From positions 5,987-69,986 of the forward strand of contig NW_019218601.1 of NCBI RefSeq assembly GCF_002571385.2: a DNA stretch of 64,000 bases, read 5' to 3'. The translations under genes and the position numbers were made by a program. Positions within the stretch are counted from its first letter, which is position 1, and the number at the start of each line of letters is the position of its first letter. A model generated the notes under the pieces. That model made no database searches, was not told where the DNA came from, and saw only the letters and a program-made list of their open reading frames with translations. The stretch is from Stylophora pistillata (Eukaryota). Below are positions 24,700-51,126 of the stretch, in pieces.

Positions 24700-27600
24700 T
24701 TAAAATTTCAAAATAGAACGAAGTAAGAGAAAATGTTTGTGTCCCAACATTTTTAACATCTTCGCCTGTACCCACTCGATGCTGTCCAAGCTACTAGCCG
24801 TGTCATACCAAAGAGGCTGGTCATCTGACACACATTCAAGTTTTTCCAATAATTTTTTCCCATTTAAGTGTACCATATCAAAGCTTTCTGGCCAATCTTC
24901 CCTGTCATGCAGCCTGGTAGTCAGTAAGTTAATTGTGCTTGGATTATTGGCACTAAGCACAATCTGCGTTCTGATCTATCAAAACTACAGGTTTTCGCAC
25001 AGGTTGTCGAAACGTCAATCACCACCACTCACAACTGTCCTTCTCAGGACTACACTCACCCAGTAGATCGCACTACACTTTCACACATGTTACCCCCCGG
25101 GTTCAAACCAATTACTGTAAAACTACATGAGTAAGCCCTACATAACCCCAAGGATGTTTCCCATTTTGGGGATGGTTTATTCCAGGCAACACAATTCATG
25201 ACCGTTAGTGTTAAAATAGTGACATGAACGACAAAACTGTAAAAATAAACGGAAAGAAACGAAAGCAGCTTTATTATTTACACAGAGAAAAACCTTGAAA
25301 TCGTTACAATAAATAACTTGGAAAAACATCAAATTATTTTGTCTGGTGCAATGCACCAAAAGGAACGTCGTTGGGTAAATTTTTCATCTTTTTGCAAGTA
25401 AGAACTTTTACAAAACTTATGAAAGCGTACAAAATATTTCTTACACTTAGTATGAACATTAAAGATATATCCAAGACTAACAAAACCGTGAGAGTTCGGG
25501 ATATCAACGTTCTATTTTCGTAAAATAATCTGAAAGTAAAACAAAGGACAAATACTATTGTCAAAGAACTGAAGAGATAAATTACATTCTGGTAAAAAAT
25601 GTTTCGAGAAAAACTAGAGACACTAAGGCAGTTTTCGCCTCGGCTTATAGCTGGTGCATATAGAGGGCAACTTTCTATAGAAACTGTGGTGCTCCTGCTA
25701 CGGTGGGGGGAGGTGGGGCGTAGGGGGTATATAGATGATTTGATTTATCAACTGAGTTTATAATGTAAATTGGCCACCGTAGAGAGTTTCAAAAGCTCAC
25801 ATTTCGAGCGTTAGCCCTTTGTCATTCTCTCTGACGAAGGGCTAGGTTGATAAAAACCAAAATATATTAAAATAAATTATTCATTGTTTTTGGTTAAAAT
25901 CATAAAGCAACTGGAGCAATTAGTGATTTGAATCAAAATCTAAAACCTTCACTCGTGTTTTCTCACGGTTAAGACATTTTCTTGCTTGTACCAAGAGTCC
26001 CCCTTGGCTCCTAGCTTCCTTCGATCTGTTTAGTAGCTGTGATTAATTTGGTTTCAGTCTGGTGACATGCAATTTAAAAGCGCTCTATCCTCTCTCTATT
26101 GTCTCATAAATATACCTGATAAATAAGAATCATCTTGTTTACGACAGAACTTGAACCTCTACAGTACCCGCACTGTAACCTTTCTGCTCAAAGAGAAACA
26201 ACAGGATTCAGATTTTCAAAATTCAGAATAAGTTTACTTACAAAACTAACAAAAGGAATATCACAAAACGATAACGACACTTACCACCAGAACTCGGATT
26301 TTTTTGTTTCTTCTCACGAGTTTGGCGATTCGAGTCTTCTCCTAAAAAAATGAGTACAGCTTAACGGCCACATCATCATTGAGTCAGGAAACGAAATAGC
26401 CGAAAACAGCCGATTTGGGCCAGACCGATAGCGCCGAATGTAGCCGCTACAGCCGAGTACATCCTCGTCCAGCCGAATACATTCTAAAATAACCGATCTA
26501 ACCTATCTATGGTGTGGCGATGAAAGTCGGCTCTATTACGGACGAACTATGGGAAAACTAGGAGCGTCATTTTCTGACAAAAAAGCATTTTAAGATTTCC
26601 AGTAATTTAACGCTGTTTATGGATGCTACATATCTAGCTACAGTTACAAGAACATATATAACACAAAAATTTCTCGTACCTTTTTGTTGGCAGAATTCGA
26701 GTACACAATGCAGCACTCAAAAGCCTGCAGTGGAAATTACAAAAACCGAAAACGGTTCCTTAGTAAATTGATTCTAAGTATTTTTACTAGACTAACAACG
26801 TGAAATTTGATCCTCAGAGCGCCAGAAGCAGGATTTTCGCGCGCAGTTTCCAATTTCAGAGATTGTATACTCAATCTTGTCAACACAGTCCCTTCATGCT
26901 TATTCAAACAACACAAATACACAGCCATATCCATGACTAACCTGGGCAGGAGGAGAAGTGTAAAACTTGTCATCAAGCACCCTCAGGTCTCTTTGATTCA
27001 CTTCCCACACATCACCAATGTCCAGTAGTCGGATGCAAATCTAAAGATAACATTTAAATAGTCAATTTGTTAGAAGCCCCAGGAAGAAAATTATATATTT
27101 TTTTCAGTTTGTAACCATTCAAATGATCCGTTACAAACCAAGACTCGCACAGGAAAACCAATTTACCTTTCCCTTGTCCAGGGTTTTCTCTACAAGAGCA
27201 CGGTACCAATACTCATCTCGCCCCTTCACGGCACACTGCTTGTATATAAAAATCTCACTCGGATCAAGGGTTTTATTGCTGGCTTCTATGTGGGTCCTGT
27301 CATAAAATAACTGCTTGATTAACAACACACTTTCACTGCTAAACAAACTCGATCGAGAGGAGAGGAAGCTAGGAGACCGATTCCTCCATATAAGCCAAAG
27401 GGAATCCCCAAAAGGAATCCCCAAAAGGAATCCCCAAAAGGAATCCCCAAAAGGAATCTTCTACTTTCAGACTCTATGTGTCTCCAGTCAAAAATACTGC
27501 ACGCATTTCGTGTGGCGCTCCGTCATTCCTTTGGACCACTGTTTGACATTGCATGGGCGTCTGAGGGGGGCTTAGGAAAAACGAAAGACGCTACTCCTTG

Positions 27601-28107
27601 AGATACGGAACAAAACCCAGAATTGCATGGACGCGTTTGAAAAACCCTTCATTTGGCTTATGGCCGCCAAGCACACAAAATACTTACCCCATGCGTACCA
27701 TGGCATCCACGAAGGCATCTTCCTCCTTCCTGGCTCGAGTAATTTTGGCCCAAAAAGTGCCACTGTTTGTCAAGTTCTCTTGAACTATAATAGAATGTTC
27801 TTTCCCTACAACAATGAGAAAACATGTAGACATGTATTTAAGAAACCATCATCAAAGGTCAGCGCTACTTCCAACGCAAGAGTCTTGCTTATACACTTTA
27901 AACCTCGCCGTCTTGTCCACGAGAGTGTGCCTTAAGATTAGGATTTTCATAGAACTCATCCACCACCATTCGAGTTTTGGATTTCAAACCATTGGCAGGC
28001 AAAGCGCGAGGAATTCAGATGACACACCATAAAACCAAAGGAAAGAAAAGGGAGAAAAGCTAGGGCACATATCGCAAAATATCGCTCCTTCGACACGATA
28101 GCGTCAA

Positions 28108-28140
<33 letters not shown>

Positions 28141-31100
28141 CGAATATTTATCCAGGATAGCCCTTCAGTACCAAGTACTGTTATCAACGGGGTCCTGCTG
28201 TTAAAAAAAAAAAACCTGTTGATAAAAATATATATATATATATATATTTAACATAATTGTAACATAAATAAGAATAAACAAAAATATTTAAAGAAGACAT
28301 GCACCAGATTAAAACCGTTAAAAACTACAATAAAAAATCACCAGTAAAAAATCGTACAGGGCTTTCCTAAATAAAACTTTAGAATTAATGTTTCTCAAAC
28401 GTAATGGCAATGAATTAAAAAGTGAAGCACCCAAGAAATAAAAACTAAGGCGCGCAAAATCCAACTTCACCTTGGGTAGTTTTATTGATTTCCCATTGTT
28501 TCTAGTGTTTAAGGAATTATGGTGAAAACGTTGAAAATAATTCGTAAATGGGAAACATGTAGTTCCATTGAGGCAGACAAAAACAAAATAGCACGCTTTC
28601 TTTTGCAGAAAGCTGTCAATTGTTAAAAACCGAAGATCGCAGTTCTTCGGACTACATTTCGGGGTAATGACTTTGAGGCTTCGTTTCTCAATGGAGCGGA
28701 TCATGCGCTTGCGGGACTCTGGCCATCCAAGACTATTACAGCCGCAATACATAAATATTGGCATAATCATCGATTGGTAAATTCGTTGGGCACAAAATGT
28801 ATCAATGCTGGAACGGACACGCCGTAAGAGGCAACAAAATTCTGCTAAATCATTATCCATTTTTCACTGCACAAATATTTGTCAAACACTTGCTAATTTT
28901 CCTAGTTCATGTCAGTAGATGCAGTCATTTACTGTATGCTTCTTTGTCGAGCTTTCCACGTATACCATTGTCTAGGGTATTAGGGTCTTTGCAAAACTCT
29001 CCTGCTTCCCTCCGCCCCTCCTTAATCAGGAGATGCCCATATATATCAATGATTAAAACCAGAGTGATACTTGCAGGCCTGGATAAAATTCATGTCAAAA
29101 AAAGCTACTAGGCTGTGACTTCCTAACCTATCTCAAGGGGTACGTAGTCAGATATCACTAATTCCTCTGTGCTTTCTTGAGAAAGTAGTTCTGGTGACAG
29201 CAAGCAACTTGAAGACACTTCCCGACACGACTCGCTATTAGCCAGACCTGCAATGGCTGGGATGTCATCTGACCTGCCTGCGATGGTAACAAACAAAACA
29301 TTTCTTTAGTACCAATTATTGTGCAACGACATTACTTAATGGCAATTACTTACCATATTTAGTACCAACAAAGCACGCATGAATTTCGACATTTATGGCT
29401 AACAACAAATCTCTCTCTTGTACGCTCCAAAAACAATACTTAGTGCAATGGATAACCACTCTCCTCAAGAACCAAAAGGAACATAACGAACTTAACGCAT
29501 TGCATTTCCTAAAATTCATTTCATAATTGAAACGAAAGAAATTAATTTTCTAAAAGATCTTCTCACCATCAGCCACTGAGGTTGTCTGAATGAGCCTAGA
29601 ATTGGAAGGTTCTCCAGGTTCCAGATCACTTAAGTCACCGGGGTACTCTGCCATTTCTGTTTTAAGACTGTTCTTGAGAAGATTCTCTGTATTCCTGTCG
29701 CTCAAGGGTGGGAGCTGGGCTGATAAGTCTGTGTCAAGACTTGTTTTGGAAGGTGTTCTAGTTTCCCAGTCACTCTCGCCAGAGGGCCCAATTGCAGTTC
29801 CTTCAACAAGACTTGTTTTAGAAGGAGTGCCCGTCTCCCAATCACTCCCACCTATGAACTGAGATGCGAATTCTTCGTCTAAGCTTGTTGTCGACATGGT
29901 TGGCACAACTCCTCTTTGTTCTTGAGGAAGACTCTTATCCGGAATTCCTGCTTCCAAGTCACTTGTGGCACAAAGTGGTGTGACTGTATTAACTCTTTCA
30001 CCTGTCTTTGATGATGTTTCCAGAGGACGTATATCAGTGGACTTAGCAACTGTATCAGTTTCAATGGTAGTCTTGGAAAGAGAACTTGACGCATTGGTTG
30101 GTCCACCCACATCCCTCTGAAGACTTGTTTTGGAAGGTGTCCTAACTTCCCAATCACTCCCATCATTGGACGGGACAGTTTCTACTCCTTCAAGACTTGT
30201 TTGGGAAGGTGTCCTAGCCTCCCAATCGCTCCCATCATTGGAAGGAACAGTTTTATCTCCTTCGAGACTTGTTTTGGAAGGTGTTCTAACCTCCCAATCA
30301 CTCCCATCGTTGGACGGGACAATTGCTGCTTCTTCAAGACTCGATTTGGAAGGTGTTCTTACCTCACAGTCATTCCCATCACTGGACGGGACAGTTTCTG
30401 TTTCTTCAGGACTTGCCTTGGAAAGCATTCTACATTCCCGATCATGCGCGTCACCGGGAACTTCAGCTGTCGCTCCAGCTGGACTTATCGGGGAAGAAGA
30501 ACGATTTTCCTTGTCACTGGATGTAAAGGGAGCACGACTGTTGTTTTCAGTTAACGGGTCCCTTTTTTCCATGGGAATTTCCTCCTCACTATTCAAGGGC
30601 TGAGAGGTTATATCATTGACCACTGCAATGTCTACATTTTTAATATTACCATCAGGTTCCTTATCAGCAGAAATTGTGTCTTTCTCAATTTTAATCCTAT
30701 TGGGATCACTGCTTTCCAGCCGCTCCATGACTGTTGCATTAGGCCGACGAGAGTCATACTCATTAATAACGACTTCTTTGTCACTCTCGATTTGATCAGC
30801 ACCCTGGTCACTGTGACCAGGTCCATCACTGCTGACATTTGTGGAATCGACAGATAGGTTTTCACAGTCATCGCTGTTGACCTCACCAGAGATCTCTGTC
30901 TTGTCGTTACCAGTACCTGGCCCTTCAGAAGTTTTCAAGCTGTCTTCCATCTGATAAGAAAGTACAATAATGCGCCTTAGTCCTTGATGAAACAAACAAA
31001 AAATCTGACTGCTTGGAATCAAACCAGTTATCTCCTCATTACCAATCCCTTGCTCTTCCACCGAACTATAGGGTGCTTGGGGTGAGTTAGACTGTCCAAG

Positions 31101-34100
31101 ATAAAAAAAGTTAATGAGACTAAACCCTGGACAATTATGGGAGCAATTTGTTACCACCAAAAGTTTAATACCCGACAGAAATTTAGACAAGGGCTTGCAC
31201 TATTCTATAAAGTATCTTTCTTTTGATAGTCCATTTGGCATATGGGAGAAAAATAAACACGTGAAAAAATAGTAATAATAAAATAAAGTCGATAACAGTT
31301 TGTCACTTGAGGGAGCCGCAATCGACTCTTGACCATCCCAGAGGTGGAGAACGTCTGTATCTTACTCCTTTGAGTGAGTATGCAGTCTTCGGTTTAAGTA
31401 TTGACATTCTTAAAGTTGTTTAGAGTGTAAAGTTACTGATCTTTTTTTATCTCGAGACATCTAATAATTGCTTGAACATGTATGTCCATGCGGTTTAAGA
31501 GGTAAACTATGACGGACATCTAAATTGACAATGTAACCGGTCAAAATAACCGGCAAACTGTAAGTCGGTCCAAATAAAATAAACTTCAGCCTAGCCAGAC
31601 ATATTGTTCTTTTTCCAGCGTTTTGAACACTTTAGGCAGCTAAAGCCACTCGTGTTTAAGTACATGTATGCACTTACTTCTTGATCCCAGTCTTCTTGAG
31701 ATGCTGGTGAATCATCACTTAACTCCTCTTTGGCAATTTTCCACCAAGGTAGCTCGGCATCACTCCTGAGCTGTTTCTCTTTTTGATTGTCGATGTTTGA
31801 CTGGCGAGTATTGATAGCATCTTGCAAAATTGAGTTGAAGTAAGTGATACTTTCGTAAGCCTTCACAATGCTCCGTCCCACGTCATTAGCAATTTCGCAG
31901 CCGTCCATAGCTTCCGTGAAGTACCCGACAGAGACACGACTTTCAGGTCTAAACTTTATATCCTTAAAATAAAGGCTGTTAGCATAGATCCACCTGATGT
32001 CACATCTTCCAACCATCTTTCCACCAAATTTAAAAGGCTCATTGAGCATGGGACAGCTCTGTGTCGGGTCAACAGAGGTTAACATTTCAGCCAAACCGCA
32101 GAATTTGATGAATTTATGTCCTGCAAACAGGAGGAACACTGAGCCCCTGCCTCCATTTCTAACACTGTTCAAGGCCAAATTTAACATTCTATTAGTTCTC
32201 GTATTGGAGCACCAAATATCAAACTTCATGGCTTCGATAATTCGCCTGGGGTCTGACTTGATCAACACAAAACGAGCATATGGTAGTTCCTCCATGCAAA
32301 TCATACTCACAGAGCATTTGTTCAAGATGTAGTTGTACATTGCGACATCAACAACACCAACAGATAAGTGGTTATCTGGCACTGCGTTGCGATAATGCTC
32401 GATTGAAAACACTTCATTGACTTCTGGCCCCAAAGTGGGAGCCTCACTTCCCAGGTGCTGAAAAGTGGATCCTTTTTTGACCAAGAGCTCATAAGCAGGC
32501 ACATCAGTGACCTTTTGCTCTGTCTGCACCTTTTTAGCCACGCCCTCAACTGAATATTCAGAAGTAGGCTCATTTTGTGTCTGGCTTTCAGATGTGGGCA
32601 TGTTTTCAGCTTGATCCTTAAGCCCTGACATCTGATTACCCTGGTGGTCATGCACGAGTACATCTTTGGTTTGGAGTTCAGATGCTGGCATATCATTGGG
32701 TAGGTGGTCAGAACTAGGTACATTGTCGACCTTACTCTCAGACATAAATAATGCTTTGGCAAATGAATCTTGCCCAGGAAGGTGCAGTATACCAGGGATT
32801 CTGGCTTGTTTGGACGCAGGTAGAGAAGATATCTTGTCTAACACTTTATCCCTTTCTGGGGATAAAGGGACAAACTCTTCAGCATCGGGACGAAGTGTTT
32901 GCTTGCTACCAATGATTTCGGCATTGACTGAAATTTTGTCTTTACCAGTGACCTTCTCGTCAGAAACACTGTGCTCAGTGTCTGTCTTTGCCACCGTCTC
33001 TCCAAAGGATACGGCATGTTCACTGTCTACCTCTTGAGCAAGATTGCATGTTCCACCAGTGTCTTGAGTCTGTACTTCACTGGCATCTTTTTGAACCACA
33101 GGTTCTTCGGCATTTGCTTTTGCTTCTCTTGGCTGAGCAGGATGGTCCTCAAGCAAAACAATTAACCACAAATAAGCCATCAAATCTAACGCTGCCACCC
33201 AATACTTGTAATAGCTCTGCCTTTACGTAAATGAACAGTTACCTGGACTTCACAGGCATGAAAAGTGGGTCAATGTAAAAATTGATCTCACTGACTTACA
33301 TATTAGTTCTTTTGGATTGTCTGTCATATGACAATTAAGTCTAGGTCTGGGATGACCCCCTGTCTGTCATATGACAATTAAGTCTAGGTCTGAGATGACC
33401 CCCCCCTGTCTGTCATATGACAATTAAGTCTAGGTCTGAGATGACCCCCCTTGTCTGTCATATGACAGTTAAGTCTAGGTCTAAGATGACCCCCCTTGTC
33501 TGTCATATGACAGTTTAGCCTAGGTCTAAGATGACCCCCCCCCATGAATCAAACCAAGACTTCTTGATCTAGAGTCAAGCACACTTAGCACTAGGTAATC
33601 ACTGTCATTTCAACTGTAAAATTATCAAAACAGGCTTTCATTTACGTGATTAACGAACATTTCATATCCTCCTTCTTGAACAAAAGGTGGTGTGTGCATG
33701 AAAACAGTATTCAACTAAAATGTTGATTTGAAACAAAAGCACTGCAGCCTATGAATTTGCACATTTAAGACTGTTCACTACTCTATCAAATCCCCATGGA
33801 AAAAAATAACAGTGACAATCTGTAGTCATACCTGGAGGTAATAGTACCACAATAGTGAAATAATGTCAACTGGATGTCAACTATATATTGTGAATAAAAT
33901 TGTATGCATATTCTCTTCTATTTGCTGACATTATCTGTAAAATTCAATGCACTTGTATGTATTTCTATTCTCACCTCTGTTGCAAGCTTTTGTTCCTCCA
34001 CTGAAATAATGAATACAACAATAAACAATGCTTCAAGCTCTGGCGAAATAAAATCATTACACTAACCGCCTCCCGGTTAGCTCAATGGATAGAGCGCTGG

Positions 34101-37100
34101 TCTGTTGTGTGGGAGGTTGAAGGTTCGAGCCCCGGCCGGACCAACAATCAGGGTCTTAAAATAATTGAGAAGAATTTGCTGCCTTTCTATAACATCAAGA
34201 AATGGTTAGATATTCTAGTCTTCTCGAATAGGGACGAATAAATGGAGGTCCTGTCTCCTGCAGGGTTGGGGTACGAGACGTTAATTTCCCACACACGAGA
34301 TTACTGTGTGATGGATGTCCATCCCTGGGTGGGATGGGTGGGTTTACAGAGGGCCATGCGTTAGAAAACTCTTTACTGGGTTAATCATGTATTTACCCTC
34401 TTGAAATAAAGAACATTGTATTGTATTGTATTGTATTGTAACATTTGAGGGGTTGCCATGCAAGGTTGATTTAAAAAAACATAGCTCTTTCACTCTTTTA
34501 ATTACCAATTGGATGGGTTTCTGATACATTTTCTCAAAAATTCAACCCTGGGAGTATAAACTTCTGTAAACGTTCTGTATCACAGAACTGATTTTTAACA
34601 CTGACTGCTGTTTTGCCTATGGGAGTGAGGATGCTCAGAGGGACAGGGAGTTGAAGAACTTTTAGAATGGTCTGGAAAACTTAAAATTATCTTACAATTC
34701 AAGTTAGGGAAGCAAAAATCTGATGTGACAAACCTAGTTGAGCCACCTTGCTGTTGATGCACACAGCGTTGTCCCCACAAGTAGACAACAACAGATGATA
34801 GATAACAGTGCCCTTCTTGTCAATGACCTTTTGGATAGCAAAAATAAATAGACAAGAAGCAAGATGAAAACAAAGTAAATTACTTTGCAACCTATAGGTA
34901 ACCACAACCTATAGGTAACCACAACCTATAGGCAACTGTAATAGAGTTTTCACATGTAGAGTATATTGAGGTAAGTGTAATAGGGGTAAGTTTCTAAAGA
35001 AACTGTCGTGCTGCGTTGCATTGGTAGGGGTAACAAGGTAATTTGGTAATATATCAACTAAGATGAAAATTGTAAAATGGCCACCGTAAAGAGTTAAAAA
35101 GCTTTTTAAAATTTACAATTTCAACTTAGTTGATAGTACCAAATTACCTTGAGGTGAGAGTAACTGGCAAGAGATGGTAGACTACGCAGAAGTCTGGGTT
35201 GGCTTTTATGATCTTATTGAAAACTTTGTGCACAACTCTTCTGAATAACAAATGCTAAGGACAAATACATGTACTTCAGAAGTGCAACACATTGAGTCAT
35301 TCACATTCAAGGACCAAAACCCATACGATACTTCCAGAATGTATTGCCAGAAGAAAATTCCAAGTGTCATCAATAAATTGTTCATCAATCAGTCTTAGCC
35401 CTGAGACCAACAGGAAATGAAAAATTGTAATACCATGATAAAATTCTAACCAATATTTCCTGCTGTGCAAAAAACTTACCTGGCCTTGAACTGCTGCCAT
35501 CAATTCTCTACTGAACGTCAGATCTTTGAAGCACCACTTTGCCTGCAAAAGAAAGAAGTTTCGTCTAGCCCCTTACTGCTTTGGACTACTGTATTCTGCC
35601 ACCTCTTCCTGGATAAAATGCTTGTCCTTTGGAAGAAACCCATGTTAAGAAGATGTTAACGAACTTGTGCGCGTGCGACTCACATGCACGTGCTTTGGGA
35701 TTACATAGGTTAATAATATCATAGGCGAATCACACAAACCTTTTTTATCATTGACAAGTGCAATTTTCTTAGAGAAGAGTTGAGAGGTTTTTGGTTTATC
35801 GAGTGGCGGTTTGTTTAACAGTTGTTGTCATTTACCGTGAGTTTACAGTTCTCCATGTTGGAATAAATGTGTTTGCTTTGATTTTCCATTTCACTTCCAA
35901 ACAAACCCCCAAGGGATTCTCCAAGTTAGCCTGCAGCGCAGGTGTCTTATTAGGGCTAGTCAAAAACTTTCCTTCCAAAATTTGAGTTGCCAAACTCAGG
36001 GGGCTGCTTATCATCCAGTGTGGCTTATCTGCCTATCTTATGGTTAAAAGCTGAAAGTTTCTAAAGAAACTGTGACCGTACTGTGTCGGTAGGGGTAACA
36101 AGATAATTGGTTATATCAACTGAGTTGAAATTGTAAATTGGCCACAGTAACGAATAAAAAAGCTGAATGTCAGCTTTTTTATTAGTTAAGGTGGCCAATT
36201 TACAATTTGAACTTAATTGATATAACCAATTACTTTGTTATGGCTACTCAAAGTTGGTGCCTACATTGTTAACAAAAATTCTCATTACCTCATAGGGCAA
36301 TTGAGTATCCAAATTTGATAAAAGGCAAGCTTGAAATGCCTAAAAAAAAAAAGAGAAAGAAAAATGAACAAAGCATGTGGTTTACCTCTGTCTTCTGGAT
36401 GCAGAGCAGTTCAAAATTAAATTTACTATCTAAATGACTGATAGAGCGAGACTCATTAAATCACTTTAAAAATGTTTCCACCACAATACATAGCCTGACT
36501 TTACCTGATATGGGATAAATTTCTCATCCAGATCAGATGAAAGTTCACAAAGAAATGAAGGCACAGATTCCTCAACAAATCCATAGTCGAGAAACCGGAT
36601 CTTACACTGAAAAAGGAATAAAAAAAAATGTACATTCAACATATTGTACCTTTCAAAGTATATTAAGTCTTAAATCAGACATTCCTAAGAATGTGACTCA
36701 AGCAACCAATTCATCTGTCACATGCAGTCCCATCCAAGCATGTAAAGACAAGACTCTCCAAAACCATTAGAGTGATCTAATCCCATAAAGGGAAACTGTG
36801 ATTAGCAATGGGTCATGTAATAGATTAAGTTATTGGTAATAAAAAGTCAAAATTCAATTTCCAGAAAAATAAAAATATTGAGATGAATTTGAGCTGGCCT
36901 TGCCATCATTCAAACATAATATCAATGAGATATAATTCTGTACTTCAAGGCTATTAGAGATCATCATGCCTCACTGCACCCATCATAATTTATTACTAAT
37001 TTCAATCACTTCGTGGTGAGATAAACAATGGTTAAAATCTTGGAAATTATAAAATGTCAATGATGTTTGAACGACATAATGCATTTACCTTTTCAGAGGA

Positions 37101-40100
37101 CGGTACACTTTCAACCCTGGTACGGCAGAACTCCTTGCTCTGTCTGTTAAGAGCTGCACAAAATGTACCTACTTTTGGCACAACAGGGTTTCCAAAGCCA
37201 TGCTTTTTATAATGGTTACTAGAAGAAAAACAAATGCTCCTTGTCATGAGCAATACTAGCAAAGACCTATTCTCCACAAGTGCACAAGCTGAACTATACT
37301 TTACCGGGTATTTAACTTAAGAATTGTGTTTCCTCATACCAATTCAGTTGACAGTTATTGAGAATTATGCATGTTACAGAAAGATAAAACTGCATAGAAT
37401 TTATTAATAGTTGTCCATTTTTAAATGTTTTGTCTGATACCATAAAAGCCTCCCTTTAAAATCAAAATCATGGTAGAACCTTGTGCTCTTAGTAAAAAAG
37501 ATGAGATAAACTTGTTCATTCATATGATACACTGGTTTAGAGGCGTTTTGACATCTCTTGTAAAACTTGTTTTAAAAGTGACCATACTGTTTTCCACACA
37601 TTTCCAACAGCACTGACAATAAGAATCTGTTTAGAAATCAAGAGCTTCTACAGTTGGTTATCATTTCCTTTATTCTCACAACCTCAAAGTTTGATTCAGG
37701 GATGATAATAAAAGGAGAAATTAGATACTAGTCACTCTTTGGATTCAAAAGGGTCAAGGAAGTAGTCATACTTTATGGCCATTACAATCTCCTTTCTCAT
37801 TTCTATTGCTGGTTCTCCTGTCTTGGAAATCCAGAAGGATCCATTCCTTGCCAGTGATCCAATTACGCTGACAGGGAAGACCTCTTTGCCTTTGGAAAGT
37901 CAATAAAACCGATTAAAATTATTCCACCATCTCTTAGTTAAGTCTCTCTCTCTCTGATGTTTTAAAACTAAAAATAACAAACAATTTTAAGTCAACTGTA
38001 CCTTCCATCTCCTTACTGAGTTGAACTTTAGGTTCCTCAGGCACCTCTTGCTCTTCATTGCCAGGTAGTGTGTCCTGGGCAGGGACAGAGGTTGGCTGTT
38101 GGAAGGAATCTGACTCAGAGCTGTCTGGTTGCTTTATAGTCACTGTAGCATTTGTATCTGCAACAGCTTGATCAAGTTCACTGCTACTTTCTTTATCTGG
38201 AGTACTACATTGTATCAGCATGTTGGACACCTAAAAAATGCAAATGTGCAAATTGGGACAAAAATAAACTCAACAGTGCATTCCCAAATGACTAAACACC
38301 ATACAGAAAAAAAAAAAATAATAAGTAAATTGATAAATAAAAGCTGTCTATTACTACAAACTGTCAACTCTTCCATTTTTTTTTGCAAGCCTTTCTTCCC
38401 ATCCACAAATATATTCACCAGATTATTTTTGACTTACTGTATTTACCTACATGCCTAACAAGAATCTATCGACCAAATCTTTTTACCAAACACGATGTTA
38501 TGAACGTTGCCAATCCTTGCTTGACCATCATAGAGTCTCTGCGGCTCAGTGCTAGAGCATCAGAACGCCAATTCCAAAGGTTTGAGGTTTTAATCCTCAT
38601 GGAGACTCATATTTTTTTTCTTGTCTTACACTCATAACTGCAAAGACTAGCAAAAACTAACGATAAAAACCGATGTTTCGGTGTCATCATGACGCCATTG
38701 TCAAGGAGAAATAAAAAATGAAGTTTGTAGCAAGGTGTAACACTAAATTAGCATAAATATGTTACGAGCTAATTAAACAAATACTTTTGCGCGAATTGAA
38801 TCGCTTTGCACGTTCAGAGTGGGTTTTAAGTCCCTGATGAGAAGCATTTCGTTCACCAAACAATCGAACTGTTACTACACTTTTTCAGAATGCTAAAACG
38901 TTTCAGTAGGTCTTTTGGGACTTCGCTGTGCCGTTCATGGTAGTGTTTATATATTGAAGATGCCTTTCGTTTATGTCCATCCACGCGTGTGTGTAAGTGT
39001 CCGCGTGTATAGCCCACATAACCCGCATCACACAGGTCACATTGAAATTGATAAACGACGCGTTGTTGGTTGACAATCTGTGGCTTGATTTCTCGTACTT
39101 TAAGATCTTGGCCAACTTTGCGGCTAACAAATACTGGCTGGACAGTTGTCTGCACCTTCATGCTAAGATTCTTGAGCTCTTTCTTAACATAATTTGCTGA
39201 TTCCTGATCTTTGAAAGGTATGACCACACGAACAATGGATATTGGTCCTTTGGGCGTCTGTGTGGGCTGCGTACCAACAATTCTTGATTGTAAGAAGGTG
39301 TTAATGGTAGAATTTACCAGGCGTTCCGGGTATTTAAGCCGTGCGAAAACTTTCTTTAGGCGATCACACTCATCAGAGAAATGGGCCCAGGAGGAAGATA
39401 ATCGGTGTGCGCAATCCAGCATAGTTTTCAGCAAGCTCCGTTTGTAGCAATTGTCTACATGGCTTTGGTAGTGTAATAGTAGGCCCGTGTTTGTTGGTTT
39501 CACATATACCTTGGTTTCAATCCGACGTGCATGGTTGATTAGTTCGGTGCCAAGGAAAGGAAGCTTGCTGTTCTTCTCCACCTCCACGGTGAATTTGACC
39601 AAAGTGTGATTTCTCTGATGAGTGTGATCGCCTAAAGAAAGTTTTCGCACGGCTTAAATACCCGGAACACCTGGTAAATTCTACCATTAACACCTTACAA
39701 TCAAGAATTGTTGGTACGCAGCCCACACAGACGCCCAAAGAACCAATATCCATTGTCCGTGTGGTCATACCTTTCAAAGATCAGGAATCAGCAAATTATG
39801 TTAAGAAAGAGCTCAAGAATCTTAGCATGAAGGTGCAGACAACTGTCCAGCCAGTATTTGTTAGCCGCAAAGTTGGCCAAGATCTTAAAGTACAAGAAAT
39901 CAAGCCACAGATTGTCAACCAACAACGTGTCGTTTATCAATTTCAATGTGACCTGTGTGATGCGGGTTATGTGGGCTATACACGCGGACACTTACACACA
40001 CGCGTGGATCGACATAAACGAAAGGCATCTTCAATATATAAACACTACCACGAACGGCACAGCGAAGTCCCGAAAGACCTACTGAAACGTTTTAGCATTC

Positions 40101-43100
40101 TGAAAAAGTGTAGTAACAAGTTCGATTGTTTGGTGAACGAAATGCTTCTCATCAGGGACTTAAAACCCACTCTGAACGTGCAAAGTGATTCAATTCGCGC
40201 AAAAGTATTTGTTTAATTAGCTCGTAACATATTTATGCTAATTTAGTGTTACACCTTGCCACAAACTTCATTTTTTATTTCCCCTTGACAATGGCGTCAT
40301 GATGACACCGAAGCGTCGGTTTTTATCGTTAGTTTTTGCTAGTCTTTGCATTTCTAAATCTTTATTGCACTCATAAACTTCATTTTTTATTTCCCCTTGA
40401 CAATGGCGTCATGATGACACCGAAGCGTCGGTTTTTATCGTTAGTTTTTGCTAGTCTTTGCATTTCTAAATCTTTATTGCACTCATAACAAGACAAAAAA
40501 AATCATATTTTTCAAGAATCTAACAGGTATACTCAAGTGCCAGTCTTGCAGAGAGAACATTCTTATATTTTTTTTTTCTTTGTCCCACACTCATGACAAG
40601 ACAAAAAAACATCTTTCTCAAGAATCTAACATGTATACTCAAGTGACAGTCTTGCAAAGAAAACAATCATAATAACAGTAAATGTTTTCCTACTTTTGCC
40701 AGATACTGAAAAGCTTTTTCAACTGCTCCTGTACAACCTTTGATTTCTGCAACTCTCCTTTTGGTGGCTAATTGCATTTGCACCAACTGGTTTAAGGTTT
40801 GCTGCAAGCAAAATTAATTACAGTTCAGAATCACCTTAATTTTTCTTTCAATTATTAGGTAGCCTTATCTTTTCCAAACTTGGCAGAAAGATAAATATAT
40901 CTTATTAACCAAGCGCGAGGGCCGTACTGGGAGAATATTGGCCCGAGGTCTTGACAGTACGGACCGAGGGCCGATATTCTTCCAGTGCGGTCCCGAGCAA
41001 GCTTGGTTAATAAGAGATTTATTATACGACTGAAGTTCAAAGGGACACAAGTGCAGTATCATTCGGGACCATTCAGGACAGTGCCCGGTCCAATACTGAG
41101 AGAATATTGACCGGCAATAGAGCATTTTTATTGGTTGATTTTAGTTATTGGCCCTCTGACAGCCCGAGTCGTGTAATAAATAAAATTATACCTTCTCTTC
41201 TTCTTCTGTGTACTTTAACCTTGTCAGCACACTTTGGAGCAATTCATTCTCCACCTCAAGTAACCTGTTTGAAAACACAAAATGTAGCATGTCATGAAAC
41301 ATAAAGTTCTCCATCTTCATTGGACAAACAATGATTTTTTTCTCAAAATAAAAAAGTAGATTTATTGTAAAACTTAGACATGTTCAAAACTTAAAAAAAA
41401 AAACCTTTTTGAAGTAAAACTGCCACACTGATAAACCCAAATACCATGACAATATGTTCACATGTGAACTCATAAATGACATGGTCATTATGCCAGGAAC
41501 AAACCCTGGTGAAAATCCTGGCCAGGATCCTGCAGGATCCTGCAGGATCCTATAGGATCTTGAATAGGAACAGGATCCTAACTAGGATCCTGTATAGGAT
41601 TTAAATCCTGACTAGGATCCTAGAAGGATAACAAATTCTGAATAGGATCCTAAGTAGGATCTTAGAGATAAATAGGATCCTATGTACGATCACTGGCCTG
41701 ATCAGGATCCTGGGCAAGAATGATATCCTGGATATATAGAGGATCCTGTGTAGGATCATTATCCTGATCAGGATCCTAGGCAAGAATAGGATCCTGGATT
41801 ATATATAGGATCCTGTGTAGGATCACTATATTCTGATCAGGATCCTGGGGAAGAATAGGATCCTGGACATCTATAGGATCCTATGTAGGATCATTATCCT
41901 GATCAGGATCCTGCGCAAGAATAGGATCCTGGATATATATAGGATCCTATGAAGGATCACTATATCCTGATCAGGATCCTGGGAAAGAATAGGATCTTGG
42001 ACATCTATAGGATCCTATGTAGGATCACTATCCTGATCAGGAACCTGGATATATATAAGATCCTATTAAGGATCGCTATCCTGATCAGGATCCTGGATAT
42101 ATATAGGATCCTATTTAGGATCACTATATCCTGATCAGGATCCTGGTCAAGAATAGGATCCTAGATATATATAGGATCCTACATAGGATTACAGCATTAT
42201 AACACTTTCCTAGCATTTTAGTCTACACCTTTGATGTTTGATGTCACATTGTAATTAGTACCCGCTTTTGTATTACATCATATTGTAAATAATTTATTCA
42301 TCTATTGTATGCTATATAATTGTTCATACTCAGTTACTCATTAACTGAAGATGGCATATGCATGCCAAAACATGTCTTTCAAAAAAGTTGTATATTTCTT
42401 ACAATGTCTACCATACTTGCTATTACCGCGACCTTGTGGAATTATTGTTTTAACCGAATTTAAAAAAAGGTGAAGGTAAGTCTTAAGATTATAACCTTGG
42501 AAGAAGATCAATTATTAATCCTGACTTCATACACAACACCAAAATGGCCTCCACCGCCTAGGATGATTTGCTAGATGTAGGGGAATTCCATGCTGACAAA
42601 GATGATTTAAAACAGGTCAAGAATCACACAAAAGATTACATAGCAGGACTAAAGGAAATAGATAAAGAAAAATTACGAGCGCATGTCATGGAAGCTTTTT
42701 TGGCATTTGTAAGATTTTATTACAAGAAATCTTTGAAGCCTAATCCGTGTGATTGCGCTGATTGTAAAAATGGAAGGAGAAATTACAAGAATCCGACAAC
42801 AGGAACATTAAAGACTAAAGTCACAGCAGATAAATTGTTAACCTTAATTGTAATTTATATTATTTTCTGTGTATTCTAGTGGAGTGAGTTTGTTTTAAAT
42901 AAAGTTCCTATTTTTAATAATATTCGGTATTTTTCGTGACTATTACACCATGTTTTTATCATACACTTGAACTTTTTATCATACCTTTGAACTTGTACAA
43001 GATCCTACAGGATCCTATAGGATCTTGTACAAGATCCTACAGGATCCTATAGGATCCTACAGGATCCTACAGGATCTTGTATAAGATCCTGAATAGGATT

Positions 43101-46100
43101 TCAGGCAAGATCCTAGTAAGGATCCTATCAAGATCTTGCACAAGATCCTGAACAGGATTTTCACCAGGGAATCCAGAATTTCATAGATACAGGCATATCA
43201 AAATAATCAATACTAGATTTTCATTTACTGTTGCACCTTAAGCTTTTTGCAAGGACAACAAATACATACTTTTCAATGTCTTGGACATCTTGTGACAATC
43301 GCCGTTGTTTCCCCTGTGGAAGAAATTACACACCTATCATTTCTATGATCACTGTGATAGTATATGTAGAGAGCATATTTGGTGAAAGAACTAGAAATAT
43401 ATTTGCATTCAAGACCCAAGTAGTGTATCTTCCATATCCTCACTAATGACAAACTTAAATACTACTTAAGCCTGGTTCACACATACAATACAAATGCAAG
43501 TGCAAATGCAAGGATTTACAAGTGTTACAATTACCCAATGCAAATGCAAATGCAAGCGTCAACACAAAAAAGGAAGAAATTTTCATTTACTTAAGCTTGC
43601 ACTTGTGTTTGCATTCAATCCCCACAGATGTGAACTATGGAAATGCTTTAAATGCAAGATGAAAAACACAGGTTCCATTGGTTCCATTCCACCATGGTAA
43701 ACTTCAAAATAAAATGGTGTTGATGTCTTCCTTCATTCCCAAAGAAAAACTTGTGGAAAGTAATGACAAATTTCCTGTACTTTTTGACAGAAGTTCTCCA
43801 AAATTTAAAGGAAAATCAAAGAAAAGAGTCTTCCCAGGAAAGATGTAACCAGAGAAGTGGGCCCAAGAGACAGTATTTTTTACAAAAGCATCTAAACGTA
43901 AACAGCATCTCTATATTGATAAAACGGCTTTCAAACCATTCAGTAAACAATTAAAGCATAAATTTTCTCTTCAGAGCTGTGCAATTGAAAATGAATAATA
44001 AATATATTGTAGCAAACTCTATGGCAGAGGCTAAATCATTGTTGGCAATCTTTGAAAAATACTTCCAATGCACTTGCATGTCTCCCTTTCTTTGTGAAAT
44101 GTGAACTTGCTTGCATTTACATTCACAACACATGTATGAACCAGGCTTTTAAAGCTAAATTAGTTTCTCTAGTGTAATGCAAAGAGGGGGAATGATGCTC
44201 TCCTTTGGATGAATCAGAGTCATCCACACCCCAACATTAGTGTTTACCAGAATTGGCTGACATTAACTGTTATATGCACCACTGTATTCATCCTATTCTT
44301 TCTGTATATGTGACACTTTACTTTTCCTTCTGATTCATCAACAGCTCAAATCAAGCAAATCTTCTGCTAATGCTCATCATTTGATAAATCCACAAAGCAA
44401 CACAACATGAGTGTGTGTAACATGATAGCATTTTTCATAACGAAAATTTTCCGTCATAGACTTGTTGCTTTTTCAAATTCAAAAGTTCTTTGATTTACAC
44501 AACAACGTTACACAAAGAAAACTTATGGTACTGAGTATCGAAGACACATCGGTCCCACAATTTTTTTGTCAATGGAACTCATGTAAATCGTATATGCACG
44601 TCTGACTGCCCTGCATCTGAGCCTATGAAATGAGTCTGCACAGTTAATGTATGTCTGAGTGGCACTGTAAGTGGAAATAGTACAGTGAAAGTGTAATGTC
44701 TAATCCTAATTCATCCAGGTTTCTTTATTCCTTTACTCAGAAGCCTTTTAGGGTAATTTTTCTCCATTGGTTTTAAAGAATCCAACCATCAAGTTATAAA
44801 CGAAAAGAATTATACTGAGTTTTTTTTTTTTTTTTTTGAAAGCTTTCAAATCTGAAATCAGAGTTCACACTTAGTCTGGTTTACTCGTATATATCTTAAC
44901 CCAGGGAATCTGGCAAATGAAACACTGGATCACCAGATTTCTCGAACTGGAAAATAGAAAAGCTACATACTGTATGTCTCCAATAACCCATAATTACAGC
45001 CCAATCTATACAAGCTGTCACCATGGGGAATGATGGGGTGACCCCTTAGTACAGGTTGACCAGCTAATGACTTGCATGATGTTTGTCTGTAATGTTTGTC
45101 CTAAACATGGAATAAATTTTAATTGAGATTATTCTTAATTCTGTCTGAGTAGTTTGGCTTTAAGTGTCAATTCAATAGAGGTGGAAGACAATACAAACAG
45201 GCCATTTGGACTCGGTCAAGGGTGACCACGAACACGTAATAGAAGTGAAAATTACAGTACTTAAAAGTAAAAATTTTGGGACATTTACACAACTGCTTTA
45301 TACAGAGTGGCAGCTTAATGCAGCAGACCTTAATGCAGGTGTAACTACAAGTATAATAAAAATTTGGATGTTTTACCAAGACTTCTATTTGTTCATATCT
45401 GTGTGCCTTGAAAACATCCAGGCTATGCACTTGAATATTACACTGAGGGCACAGACAGATAATTCTATCTGTAAGATAAAAAAAGAAATCATAAATGTAA
45501 CTGTTGTCAAAAAAGTGTCTCTTGGTTTCATGTTAACTATGAACCAGTGGCATAAAATATACAGTACAACTTGTGCTTAGTTTCATTAGCTGATCCTGCT
45601 TCAAAAAAAACTTGCAATTGTTTACAGATTAAAGAATCAGGTTTAAAAGAATAAAAATTAATCCATGCATGAACAGCAAAAGTCAAGTCCCAGATCAGCA
45701 ATGAGACAGATTCGGATTTTACTTTTCCACATTGTTTGTGTCATTACCCATTCAGATTTTGATAACCACAAGATAAGTATTGACCTGAGCGCTGTGCCTC
45801 TTAAGGATTAGAAAATCCAAAGGATATTTTGGCCACAGTTACAGGAGTAGGAAACAATATGCCACAGTTCGGATATAATTTATGAATCTTGTATGTATTC
45901 GATGTGTTTAATATGCCACATATACATTGACATTTGCAGCAGTTGCACATGTCTATTGAAATATGATGCAAAAATTTGAGCCACACAAAACAAAAGTGTT
46001 GGTCTGTTGACCTCGTTCATTCTTATTCAGGTACAGCGTCATGGTACATATCCAGCAGACCTGGTTCTTTTTTGAGTGTTGGTGCCTAGATCTACTGCAA

Positions 46101-46527
46101 GTCTGAATTCCTTTCTAGTGTTGATGCTTAATTTCTACGCACCAAGATATTAATTTTAGTAAGTCTAACTGTTTTTTGTTGATTTTTTTGTTTGTTTGTT
46201 TGTTTTTTTGTTTAACCACATTTAGTATTGTACTCATTTTAGCTGTCATTTTAATCTTTACCGGGTGCAAATCACGTGCATTCACCTTGGACAAAATCAA
46301 CATGTTTACCATGTGTTTCCTGCACCAAAACATGCTTACATGCATGATTTGCACTGATACAAGAACAGATCACTGGTTTGGAATACAAATCTTTCCAAAT
46401 AAGCAAACAGTGTGAAATTTTAGGAGGTGACCTTACCATATTTGCAATCAAAACACTTGAAATCCGCTCGCTTCTCAGGATGATTGTAGCACATAGGCGC
46501 GTTTAGCGACAAGCTCGCAGCAGCCAT
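24700..46527 (-). CDS. Multi-exon B-box / coiled-coil / Tudor / PAM2 / YTH / Tudor protein (RNF17/Qin-like with a YTH domain)
   Basis: Manually spliced gt-ag exons (approximate): 46527-46437 (Kozak gccATGG), 45468-45377, 43313-43270, 41264-41192, 40801-~40700, probable ~38430-38364, 38230-38002, 37889-37772, 37218-37089, 36607-36505, 36339-36289, 35541-35480, 34828-34734, 34001-33976, 33147-31678, 30950-29567, 29277-29128, 27806-27699, ~27311-27167, 27039-26942, 26723-26680, 26341-26285. The 3' end is uncertain (~25325 or ~24700). B-box: CYNHPEKRADFKCFDCKYDRIICLCPQCNIQVHSLDVFKAH. Tudor 1: GTFCAAL...FCRTRV...KIRFLDYG...AFQACL. YTH: RFVLIKS...DIWCS...VFLLF...FCGLAEM...DIRWIY. Tudor 2: CAVKGRDEYWYRALV...IRLLDIG...PAQAFECC. 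Reading phase across 40700-38230 is not fully resolved. Confidence 0.8.
25005..25120 (+). mobile_element. Short PLE-derived/SINE-like repeat fragment
   Basis: ggttgtcgaaacgtca...ccttctcaggactacactcaccc...cccgggttcaaacca pattern, resembling common cnidarian PLE termini. Confidence 0.45.
25665..25860. mobile_element. Interspersed repeat (tttctaNagaaactgt...ggccaccgt family); related fold-back copies at 34990-35150 and 36058-36240
   Basis: Three diverged copies share tttcta(a/t)agaaactgt...tatcaact...tgtaaattggccac. The intronic copies fold back on themselves. This copy carries ttcgagcgttagccctt and ctgacgaagggcta, pieces of a minimal hammerhead-like motif also seen at 60090-60125. Confidence 0.6.
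27401..27458 (+). repeat. 13-bp tandem repeat (ggaatccccaaaa) x4
   Basis: Directly visible in the sequence. Confidence 0.9.
28110..28860 (-). mobile_element. CR1/L2-type LINE 3' portion with microsatellite tail (intronic)
   Basis: ORF 28318-28860 reads LLRRVRSSI...IYQSMIMPIFMYC...NTRNNG...SFYFLGASLFNSLP. An (aat)n tract at 28110-28140 is the (att)n tail on the minus strand. Confidence 0.85.
29730..30400 (-). repeat. Coding 72-nt (24-aa) tandem repeat, 4 tandem copies plus 2 downstream copies
   Basis: TVPSNDGSDWEVRTPSKTSLE-type units within ORF 29550-31190. Confidence 0.9.
31815..32290 (-). other. YTH domain (YTHDF-like) within the large exon of the Tudor gene
   Basis: Aligns by eye to the YTHDF consensus (VFIIKS, KYxIWCST, VYLLFS, HFCGVAEM, FDVRWIF, SRDTQE, TSIFDD). 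Here these read FVLIKS, KFDIWCSN, VFLLFA, KFCGLAEM, CDIRWIY, AMDGCE, NSILQD. Confidence 0.88.
33317..33543 (+). repeat. ~44-bp minisatellite x5 (tgtctgtcatatgacaattaagtctaggtctgagatgacccc)
   Basis: Five tandem copies, each containing the palindrome tgtcatatgaca. Confidence 0.9.
34066..34340 (+). mobile_element. tRNA-derived SINE
   Basis: A-box tagctcaatgg and B-box ggttcgagcccc in a tRNA-like head, followed by a non-tRNA body (cagggtcttaaaataattgagaag...). Confidence 0.75.
38535..38637 (+). mobile_element. tRNA-like SINE interrupted by the Penelope insertion; it resumes at ~40489
   Basis: Head ggctcagtgctagagcatc...ttgtcttacactcataa continues as caagacaaaaaa after the PLE. An uninterrupted tail copy is at 40565-40620. 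Confidence 0.55.
38638..40488. mobile_element. Penelope-like element, two 5'-truncated copies in inverted orientation (GIY-YIG endonuclease)
   Basis: The minus copy (38638-39603) has the RT thumb (KFTVEVEKNSKLPFLG, KVYVKPTNTGLLLHYQSH) and GIY-YIG (VVYQFQCDLCDAGYVGYT). The plus copy (39604-40216) is nearly identical, and its 3' segment is duplicated (40262-40376 / 40374-40488). The sequence cactcataa flanks both sides. Confidence 0.93.
40895..41025. mobile_element. Hairpin/palindromic MITE (Crypton-like)
   Basis: tcttattaaccaagc...gcttggttaataaga inverted arms, with inner gggccgtactgggagaatattggccc / gggccgatattcttccagtgcggtccc. Confidence 0.6.
41504..43169. mobile_element. Non-autonomous DNA transposon with CCC termini (EnSpm/CMC-like) and AGGATCCT-rich subterminal arrays
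   Basis: 17-bp TIRs ccctggtgaaaatcctg / caggattttcaccaggg with a putative 2-bp AA TSD. Dozens of aggatcct motifs lie in 41520-42190 and 42995-43160. Confidence 0.8.
43468..44148. mobile_element. Harbinger-like MITE
   Basis: TIRs aagcctggttcacac / gtatgaaccaggctt, with subterminal aaatgcaag repeats. Confidence 0.65.
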
Positions 46528-50600: not shown

Positions 50601-51126
50601 GGCTTCAAGTCGTACAAGATTGCTTCCCCTTCCATCTTGCTGTTTAGCCAAATATTGTGTCGATTTTTAAAAGCAAGCCTATCAAGGTACACTTTTTGCG
50701 AATAAAGGGGAATTGTGTTTGCGGCTCTGCCATTTATTACACTAAGAAAACATCATCTTTCTCAACTTACTAGAAAGGTTGCGTAAGTAAAAAGGAAGGA
50801 GTAAAACTTCAGAAATCTCCTCAATTTTGAATTTAGCTTATTTGTCCGTGTTGTAAAGAATTCTTGATGCGTGGGGTTTCATACGCAATAATCGAAGGTA
50901 CTCTTCTTCCGATTGGCGGATTAAATTCGTACCTAGATCTCTTTCCTGGCAAAGCCCTCCTCGTCAGTGAGAGATCTGGGTACAAGATTAATGGCAGATT
51001 CCTTCCCTCCAAGATTAACCAAACGTCTCACTTTCTATTTGGTTTTCAGGTGAGAAGTTCCGTTATGGAATGACATTTGGGTACAGCACTCAGAACGCAA
51101 CGCCTATGAAAGCCCTAACCGCCTAA
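47608..51126 (+). CDS. CIMIP2: FAM166/CIMIP2-family ciliary microtubule inner protein (~300 aa)
   Basis: Exons 47608-47663, 47804-48033, 49992-50531 and 51050-51126 have canonical gt/ag sites and consistent phases. Motifs: TPDPYHIPGYCGYCPQFKYQIGETFG, MVPNYTGYIP..HYFGKPYA, SGYTGFVP, VPHYTGHVPGEKFRYGMTFG. The paralog (A/B) is not resolved. Confidence 0.9.

Follow-up and report, generated by a model that had tools for sequence, protein, structure and literature searches.

The gene and its protein

The 64,000-nucleotide stretch of the Stylophora pistillata genome considered here (contig NW_019218601.1, positions 5,987 to 69,986; hereafter the window, numbered from its first letter) carries on its minus strand the gene LOC111345078, whose product XP_022808069.1 (P0002 in our set; 1,572 aa) is 100% identical to the window sequence. 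The parts of this protein follow one another as a B-box, a probable coiled coil, a Tudor domain, a PAM2-like motif, a YTH domain, an acidic region and a second Tudor domain. Animal YTH domains are taken by default as readers of N6-methyladenosine (m6A), and one database record gives the gene the automatic label 'YTH domain-containing family protein 2'. A reading made from the sequence alone had proposed, at 31815..32290, a YTH domain with a remodelled aromatic cage; the remodelling is borne out by the pocket columns of 28 family rows set against 148 control domains, and the feature proves larger, the domain occupying residues ~674-853 of a 22-exon protein. It is possible that the protein acts as an RNA adaptor that is blind to m6A and is tied to poly(A)-binding protein (PABP) and to Tudor partners. 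The features on which the argument rests are as follows.

26139..46527, minus strand: whole gene, 22 coding exons, all introns GT-AG, with the exact exon chain of P0002 on the window
31678..33147, minus strand: exon 14, 1,470 nt, phase 0 at both ends, holding the PAM2-like motif, the whole YTH domain and the EDWD motif
31810..32349, minus strand: extended YTH domain (Pfam core 31858-32277), aa 674-853, with N- and C-terminal helices as in YTHDF
32242..32244, minus strand: Arg709, N1-reading position (Asp in YTHDF, Asn in YTHDC1), hhalign posterior 0.58, the adjacent residue also being Arg
32212..32214, minus strand: Trp719, first cage wall, retained, hhalign posterior 1.0
32002..32073, minus strand: remodelled recognition loop, with Leu775 as wall 2, Phe779 and Phe781 in a 5-residue insertion, and Met785 as wall 3
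32044-32046, minus strand: Leu775, wall 2, hhalign posterior 0.45
32014-32016, minus strand: Met785, wall 3, hhalign posterior 0.79

The minus strand between 31780 and 32340 has an open, stop-free translation. Spliced joints were seen in RNA contigs for 15 of the 21 introns, and exon 14 was joined to the upstream Tudor exons in 4/4 runs and to the downstream exons also in 4/4, although two of these runs, X12 and X13, are near-identical and look like one data set; the contigs indicate presence only, neither level nor cell type. Two Logan translations, P0212 and P0216, span the full protein. LOC111345078 is an intact, expressed and spliced gene. An artefact or a pseudogene was considered and is ruled out by the open, spliced 22-exon gene together with a ratio of nonsynonymous to synonymous substitution rates (dN/dS) well below 1.

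Some peculiarities of the gene may be mentioned here. In one contig each of X12 and X13 an allele, 32103 A>G, turns the codon of the conserved Phe756 into Leu (codon read by eye). About 100 extra disordered residues precede the YTH domain (32400-32750, minus strand) in Stylophora and in P0003, and are absent in Oculina, Montipora and Nematostella. The gene model PFX14217.1 wrongly takes a retroelement fragment of intron 5 as its first exon.

Identity and fold of the YTH domain

The Pfam YTH profile (PF04146) is placed at aa 698-837 of the protein with E 1.2e-14 and 54.6 bits against a cut-off of 22.1. Profile scores were best for YTHDF (E 9.6e-20), with YTHDC1 at ~1e-5 and Mmi1 at ~1e-3. An AlphaFold2 model, built on a 22-row alignment, reached a predicted local distance difference test score (pLDDT) of 83 and a predicted template modelling score (pTM) of 0.85, and Foldseek matched it to the YTH fold with E 3e-12. 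In the VIA comparison the best match was YTHDF3 (Z 19.8, root-mean-square deviation (rmsd) 3.0, 171 aligned residues), with model positions 18-198 lying on YTHDF3 392-566, the N-terminal segment included, while YTHDC2 was matched with Z 17.7 over 130 residues and the lowest rmsd listed (2.0). The conserved N-terminal segment of the domain superposes on its YTHDF counterpart. Mmi1 was not among the fold matches listed, an absence that excludes nothing, and the ESM Atlas returned generic YTH clusters only. As modelled, the YTH fold is intact. There are 37 invariant columns among 22 family rows of the domain, and its net charge is +7 versus +3 for the YTHDF of the same genome, ranging from +1 to +8 across all 28 family rows (a charge total, not a surface map).

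The m6A pocket

The pocket columns were read from one MAFFT alignment in which 28 family rows stand beside the 148 other YTH domains that the searches returned; these controls, mostly of YTHDF type, scored best against the family profile, and the 28 rows are related to each other, hence they do not stand for 28 independent events. The columns carry YTHDF2 residue numbers, which we take to be correct and which are consistent by spacing with the PDB sequence. Residue numbers of YTHDC1 were taken from PMC6112328; for this and the other papers cited below by PMC number, statements refer to the part of the text covered.

The first cage wall is retained: Trp719 lies in the motif IWCS, which the sequence-only reading had correctly picked out, and this column is Trp in 28/28 family rows and 148/148 controls, with Cys720 likewise invariant in the family (28/28). 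The second wall, which is Trp in 142 of the 148 controls, is Trp in none of the 28 family rows, being Leu in 25 and Ser, Tyr and Val in one each. The third wall is aromatic in 148/148 controls versus 0/28 family rows, where Met (23 rows), Cys (3), Ile (1) and Leu (1) are found instead. The N1-reading column, Asp in 139/148 controls, is Arg in 26 family rows, Gln in Nematostella and Thr in P0033, and a one-residue deletion next to Arg709 removes the Tyr of the beta1-alpha1 loop (Tyr418 column). The Lys416 column is Lys or Arg in 28/28 family rows, and the Asp528 column is mostly kept.

The rings of two Trp make the m6A-specific contacts and give methyl selectivity, and for the third wall Trp, Tyr and Leu are all possible, Leu being found in YTHDC1 (PMC6112328). 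Because the third wall of YTHDC1 is Leu, Met at this place is not abnormal and may stand in for Leu; the changes that appear abnormal from the alignment are those of the second wall and of Asp to Arg. Judged from its sequence, the domain lacks two of the residues that define an m6A reader, namely the second cage Trp and the Asp or Asn at the N1 site. The earlier statement that both Trp of the YTHDF loop are lost stands in so far as the loop has no Trp here, but it is overstated, being drawn from YTHDF alone, when Tyr or Leu can serve as third wall as well as Trp (PMC6112328).

The recognition loop and its register

Counted from the AEM strand to the next Trp, the loop has 32 residues versus 27 in YTHDF and 33 in the YTHDC1 of this genome; its sequence, as first reported, was confirmed in translation. 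There is no Trp anywhere in the loop of the Stylophora protein, in either register, and Trp is present in the loop in 3/28 family rows. The second Trp is certainly gone from the Stylophora protein.

The distance from the strand to wall 2 is 13 residues in 129 of the 142 control rows with a measurable loop, and it is kept in the genome's YTHDC1, whose longer loop comes after wall 2. Since this distance is nearly fixed, Leu775 is favoured at wall 2, and both MAFFT and hhalign assign Leu to this place. When counted from the C-side, wall 2 is Lys780, flanked by two conserved Phe, and the column is Lys or Arg in 20/28 rows. Both loop Phe are kept in 25/28 rows, the second site being Trp in Nematostella, and in P0033 the insertion is without an aromatic residue. 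In P0030, which groups with P0217 of Montipora, a 6-residue loop deletion restores the YTHDF spacing, with Trp and then Met five residues on; it is possible, to judge from this one loop, that a YTHDF-like cage has secondarily returned there.

Family, selection and origin

Homolog searches found the same architecture in Oculina patagonica, Montipora and Nematostella vectensis (LOC5517765) as well as in one further transcript, and 23 further single-exon family frames, of which P0033 is distant. Outside Hexacorallia these limited searches, most hits of which had no taxon, yielded no recognisable ortholog, so this range is a minimum. The family forms one group in two trees (support 95/90 and 99/97), its two most distant rows meeting on long branches; identity of the YTH domain is 40-58% among corals and 23% to Nematostella. 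Because the same genome also has a YTHDF in which all three cage residues are Trp and a YTHDC1 whose cage is made of Trp, Trp and Leu, both of them normal, the domain is an extra, old paralog beside them. YTHDC2 was not found in searches of the coral's own genome, which intron-split genes can escape.

A metagenome scan yielded four loci, of which three are full exons; the partial L007 (31% identity) was left out of the estimate of selection, which was made by the Nei-Gojobori method over 183 codons. The dN/dS of the YTH domain was 0.21-0.38 in 6/6 pairs, with bootstrap upper limits of 0.39-0.69; the three Stylophora pairs are near saturation (dS 1.3-1.7), and the other three, with dS of 0.16-0.28, gave 0.28-0.38. 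Values of 0.46-0.67 were obtained for the disordered part of exon 14, and of 0.19-0.35 for the loop alone, the latter on 24 codons and with 3/6 intervals reaching past 1. On account of the domain values, neutral decay is rejected for the four lineages sampled; the sequence-only reading had named dN/dS across orthologs as the test for decay, and decay fails it. The change is old and shared. The domain is constrained, yet far less than canonical YTHDF.

The domain is encoded entirely within exon 14 and is intron-free, as in coral YTHDF; that of the coral YTHDC1, by contrast, is interrupted by introns. YTHDF is the first match of the Nematostella and P0033 domains as well. In tree comparisons under LG+G4 with three YTHDC-type rows, a clade with coral YTHDC1 was rejected by the approximately unbiased (AU) test (p-AU 0.017), whereas a clade with animal-like YTHDF, on long branches, was not (p-AU 0.13); an earlier quick tree of 59 rows, with a single YTHDC row, does not allow the family to be placed. 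The family YTH is likely a fast-evolving YTHDF copy. It may have originated when a YTHDF-type domain without introns was inserted, as a single symmetric exon, into a gene with tandem Tudors, before the coral/anemone split.

The rest of the protein

The other recognisable parts of the protein are encoded as follows.

45377..46527, minus strand: exons 1-2, one zinc finger of B-box-like type, aa 11-57 (Pfam zf-B_box E 0.0028; the 18.2 bits fall short of the cut-off of 24.1)
40694..43313, minus strand: exons 3-5, conserved helical region, aa ~62-146 (62-67% identity among corals, 36% to Nematostella)
34734..37889, minus strand: exons 7-12, extended Tudor domain 1 (Pfam TUDOR; best PDB matches Papi/TDRKH and TDRD1)
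32866..32895, minus strand: PAM2-like motif L-x3-A-x2-F-x-P, aa 492-501, in a disordered region ~180 residues before YTH
32776..32796, minus strand: PG[IV]LHLP motif, aa 525-531, ~25 residues after the PAM2-like motif (24/29 rows, absent from Nematostella)
31684..31695, minus strand: EDWD acidic Trp motif, ~40 residues after YTH (D/E-W-D/E in 27/29 rows including Nematostella)
29567..30950, minus strand: exon 15, long acidic region, poorly conserved (10-18% identity between species)
26139..27805, minus strand: exons 17-22, extended Tudor domain 2 (Pfam TUDOR E 3.7e-26; best PDB match TDRKH)

The B-box-like region is 74-81% identical among corals and 38% to Nematostella, and the helical region, because of its sequence and its position after the B-box, is likely a coiled coil. 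The Tudor exons measure 118/130/102/51/63 nt in Tudor 1 and 118/130/99/45/57 nt in Tudor 2, with matching phases, which shows that duplication within the gene gave rise to the two Tudors; that the YTH exon between them is symmetric would fit its capture at a later time. The cage columns, positioned by a consensus of four aromatics and Asn that we assume to hold, read N/C/F/Y/F in Tudor 1 and G/Y/L/I/D in Tudor 2 versus F/Y/F/Y/N in an intact control. None of the 10 family Tudor domains has a full methyl-arginine cage, versus 5/6 in the control protein; at most two of the four aromatics are present in Tudor 1 (His not counted) and one of four in Tudor 2, and Asn in none. Extended Tudors that have no cage are protein-binding modules in the PIWI-interacting RNA (piRNA) pathway of flies (PMC12526068), and TDRD2 prefers an unmethylated PIWI peptide (PMC10212539).

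The PAM2-like pattern was found in 26/29 family rows versus 26/4,800 shuffles, and the Pfam PAM2 profile matched one of six peptides, below its cut-off (E 0.033). The motif is predicted to bind the MLLE domain of PABP: the modelled complex of the peptide with the genome's own PABP-type MLLE scored 0.38, a weak pass (best of 3 controls 0.02), with model runs agreeing in at least 81% of contacts and a partner pLDDT of 54. The pass mark used is reached by 51/78 solved pairs and 2/108 mismatched pairs; passes at 0.60 or under were seen for 5/78 solved complexes and include all 4 passing mismatches of 180. A complex like that of PAM2 and MLLE is already known. As the low-score passes include all passing mismatches and a like complex is known, this pass may reflect likeness to the known complex and adds little.

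Exon 15 contains a 72-nt repeat in 4.2 copies (30120-30423), and SDWE occurs five times in this acidic exon and in single copies in Oculina, Montipora and Nematostella. EDWD and SDWE presumably resemble the W-acidic motifs bound by kinesin light chain or Trp anchors for decay factors.

Other features of the window

Outside the coding parts of the Tudor-YTH gene the following were observed.

49991-50647, plus strand: exon of a ciliary microtubule inner protein (CMI2B-like) gene, the upstream opposite-strand neighbour of the Tudor-YTH gene
61305-62796, plus strand: exons of a caspase gene (Peptidase_C14 E 5e-37)
38853-39653, minus strand, and 39599-40216, plus strand: two inverted near-identical retroelement fragments in intron 5, which we take to be Penelope-like (weak GIY-YIG match, E 4e-4)
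~34060-34400: intronic repeat of very high copy number with a tRNA-like start, likely a short interspersed element (SINE)
near 40890-41180: second high-copy repeat
33317-33540 and 41500-43100: tandem repeats lying in introns (45-nt x5, and arrays of 30-134 nt rich in GGATCC)
~16200-16750: assembly gap outside the gene, present as a run of N

Relation to known proteins

Coral proteins with a B-box, several extended Tudors (eTudor) and a YTH domain were described by Bell et al. 2020 (BMC Biol, PMC7641849), who proposed a link to the piRNA pathway, and are very likely of the same family as LOC111345078. In the text covered, that study treats YTH as an m6A reader, leaves the pocket unexamined in the main text (the word 'aromatic' occurs 0 times) and does not mention PAM2, the loss of Tudor cages, the anemone ortholog or the exon structure. 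Within the open literature, to which the search was confined (subscription papers being outside it), only Bell et al., as journal article and preprint, name the family, no paper names the accessions, and the search found no account of the altered pocket, of the PAM2 motif or of the incomplete Tudor cages; the family is not described in the covered parts of PMC5832417 and PMC4738411, and the supplement of a Nematostella atlas has one unassigned name, YTHD2-like-1, with no expression. The architecture itself has been known since 2020. Cage loss has precedent outside animals, cage-altered YTHDFs being reported in green algae (PMC10617740).

The closest likeness is to YTHDF1-3 and Pho92, the best matches in both sequence and structure, with which the domain shares the extra N- and C-terminal helices, the first Trp, the Cys, the Asp528 column and the lack of introns; it differs from them in its non-aromatic walls 2 and 3, Arg in place of Asp, a one-residue deletion and a 5-residue insertion. 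In YTHDF proteins, moreover, YTH ends a disordered protein as its only folded domain, whereas here it lies between two Tudors in a protein with a B-box-like finger. YTHDC1 and YTHDC2 resemble it in the non-aromatic third wall, the loop of 32-33 residues and, for YTHDC2, the rmsd of 2.0 over 130 residues, but YTHDC proteins keep the second Trp and the N1-site Asn, and the profile match is at E ~1e-5. Mmi1 of fission yeast, a YTH protein that does not read m6A, likewise has the YTH fold and a changed N1-reading residue. The sequence-only reading had cited it as a precedent for a degenerate cage, which proves mistaken, since the m6A pocket of Mmi1 is conserved; the failure to bind m6A is due there to an acidic rim together with Ala362 at the N1-reading site, and RNA lies in the opposite groove (PMC4737157, Wang et al.). 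Mmi1 thus departs from the rule with its pocket kept, an acidic rim and RNA on the opposite face; the coral domain is basic, and in it the very residues of the cage have changed.

With respect to the remaining domains, Qin/Kumo/RNF17 and the cage-less eTudor factors of the piRNA pathway (Vreteno, Tejas and eTud1 of Krimper) offer parallels in the combination of a B-box with extended Tudors and in Tudors that have no cage, and TDRKH/Papi provides the best PDB matches of both Tudors. Compared by architecture, not by orthology, the coral protein differs from Qin/RNF17 in having no RING, only two Tudors, and YTH with a PAM2-like motif between them. The plant YTHDF protein ECT2, which reads m6A, acts through PABP and binds it by a Tyr-rich region (PMC10702811); here too a YTH protein may work with PABP, but a PAM2-like motif is predicted to make the contact.

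Possible function

As the domain has lost most of the residues that normally hold methylated adenine and yet is kept by selection, RNA is likely bound by a different rule. The explanation to which we give a probability of about one half is that the protein, blind to m6A, serves as an adaptor between RNA and its PABP and Tudor partners. With the second Trp gone, the methyl-pi contacts that give m6A selectivity would be lost, and the Arg would alter the reading of the base; the same face, because the domain stays basic (+7 vs +3), would likely still hold RNA, the methyl mark no longer being required. Through its PAM2-like motif the protein would be anchored to PABP on poly(A) mRNA; its two extended Tudors, having no complete cage, would engage partner proteins without arginine methylation, and the B-box with the helical region would make it dimerise. 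The setting might be a cytoplasmic ribonucleoprotein granule of germ or stem cells, beside the piRNA machinery, a guess made from the domain company only, where the translation or stability of a set of mRNAs would be controlled, the ordinary YTHDF and YTHDC1 keeping the m6A job.

Several observations weigh against this adaptor explanation or its premises. The loop register is weak, with a posterior of 0.45 at Leu775 and a loop pLDDT of 63-68, the lowest of the model; the wall-2 column counted from the C-side has Trp in Montipora and P0030 and Tyr in Nematostella (Trp/Tyr in 3/28), and HMMER aligns the Nematostella loop Tyr with the cage Trp. The Gln at the N1-reading site of Nematostella could act like the Asn of YTHDC1. 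The Arg527 and Asn462 columns, which in YTHDF hold RNA-backbone residues, are not kept in the family, which would fit a total loss of RNA binding. The PAM2-like pattern is absent from P0033 and degenerate, core only, in two Nematostella isoforms. As for descent from YTHDF, the free trees put the family outside the YTHDF crown on long branches, and the YTHDC-like loop length and the lowest listed rmsd (2.0, to YTHDC2) point elsewhere.

Alternatively, the cage might have been rebuilt as a new hydrophobic box from Trp719, Met785 and at least one of the two loop Phe, which some orthologs replace by Trp or Tyr; it would still read m6A or a related methylated base, with Arg or Gln hydrogen-bonding to N1. 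The invariance of Trp719 and Cys720, the two Phe in 25/28 rows with Trp at the second site in Nematostella, the closeness of Met to the third-wall Leu of YTHDC1, the loop deletion of P0030 that gives YTHDF spacing with Trp and then Met, and the low dN/dS of the loop, though 3/6 of its intervals include 1, would all agree with such a cage. However, the C-side wall-2 column takes nine different residues, unlike a cage wall, the insertion of P0033 has no aromatics, MAFFT and hhalign put Leu at wall 2, and Mmi1 retains its pocket without binding m6A, so that a kept first Trp proves little; a rebuilt cage seems rather unlikely, if worth keeping in mind. The loss of methyl-cage residues in all three reader domains, together with the Arg527 and Asn462 columns, might instead mean that YTH now binds little RNA and serves to bind proteins or as a structural module, as the two Tudors appear to do. 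Its pocket, lined by Arg, might then accept an acidic peptide with Trp, for instance the EDWD of the same protein, conserved to Nematostella. A basic domain with Lys or Arg in the Lys416 column of 28/28 rows, and a PAM2-like motif that puts the protein on messenger ribonucleoproteins, speak against this, and it appears unlikely.

Binding of unmethylated RNA in the groove opposite the m6A pocket, of which Mmi1 itself shows a YTH domain to be capable (PMC4737157), is very improbable here: in YTHDF2, MRB1 and YTHDC1 this groove is filled by the N-terminal segment (PMC4737157), the coral domain keeps a conserved N-terminal segment superposing on that of YTHDF, and the Mmi1 profile is far weaker than that of YTHDF (E ~1e-3 vs 1e-19). 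The neutral decay of a redundant YTHDF copy might be suggested by the long branches, by identities of 40-58% among corals and 23% to Nematostella, and by the RNA allele 32103 A>G that changes a conserved Phe; it is hardly credible for an open, spliced 22-exon gene with dN/dS well under 1 and a domain kept from corals to anemone with 37 invariant columns among 22 rows.

A wider form of the adaptor explanation may be offered tentatively, with the odds clearly against it: the family might be a third, hexacoral-specific kind of animal YTH, whose rewired pocket, with Arg at the base-reading site and walls of Leu, Phe and Met, reads another RNA mark or a specific unmethylated motif, and which couples those mRNAs to PABP and to a methylation-independent piRNA Tudor scaffold. 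If so, it would be a direct link from YTH to the piRNA pathway, kept since the coral/anemone split. Any conserved lineage of animal YTH domains whose pocket has been rewired would show, as an experiment made by nature, how the specificity of this fold changes; it would also correct the only published account of these coral proteins, in which m6A binding has a central place. Nematostella, a genetic model, has a single ortholog.

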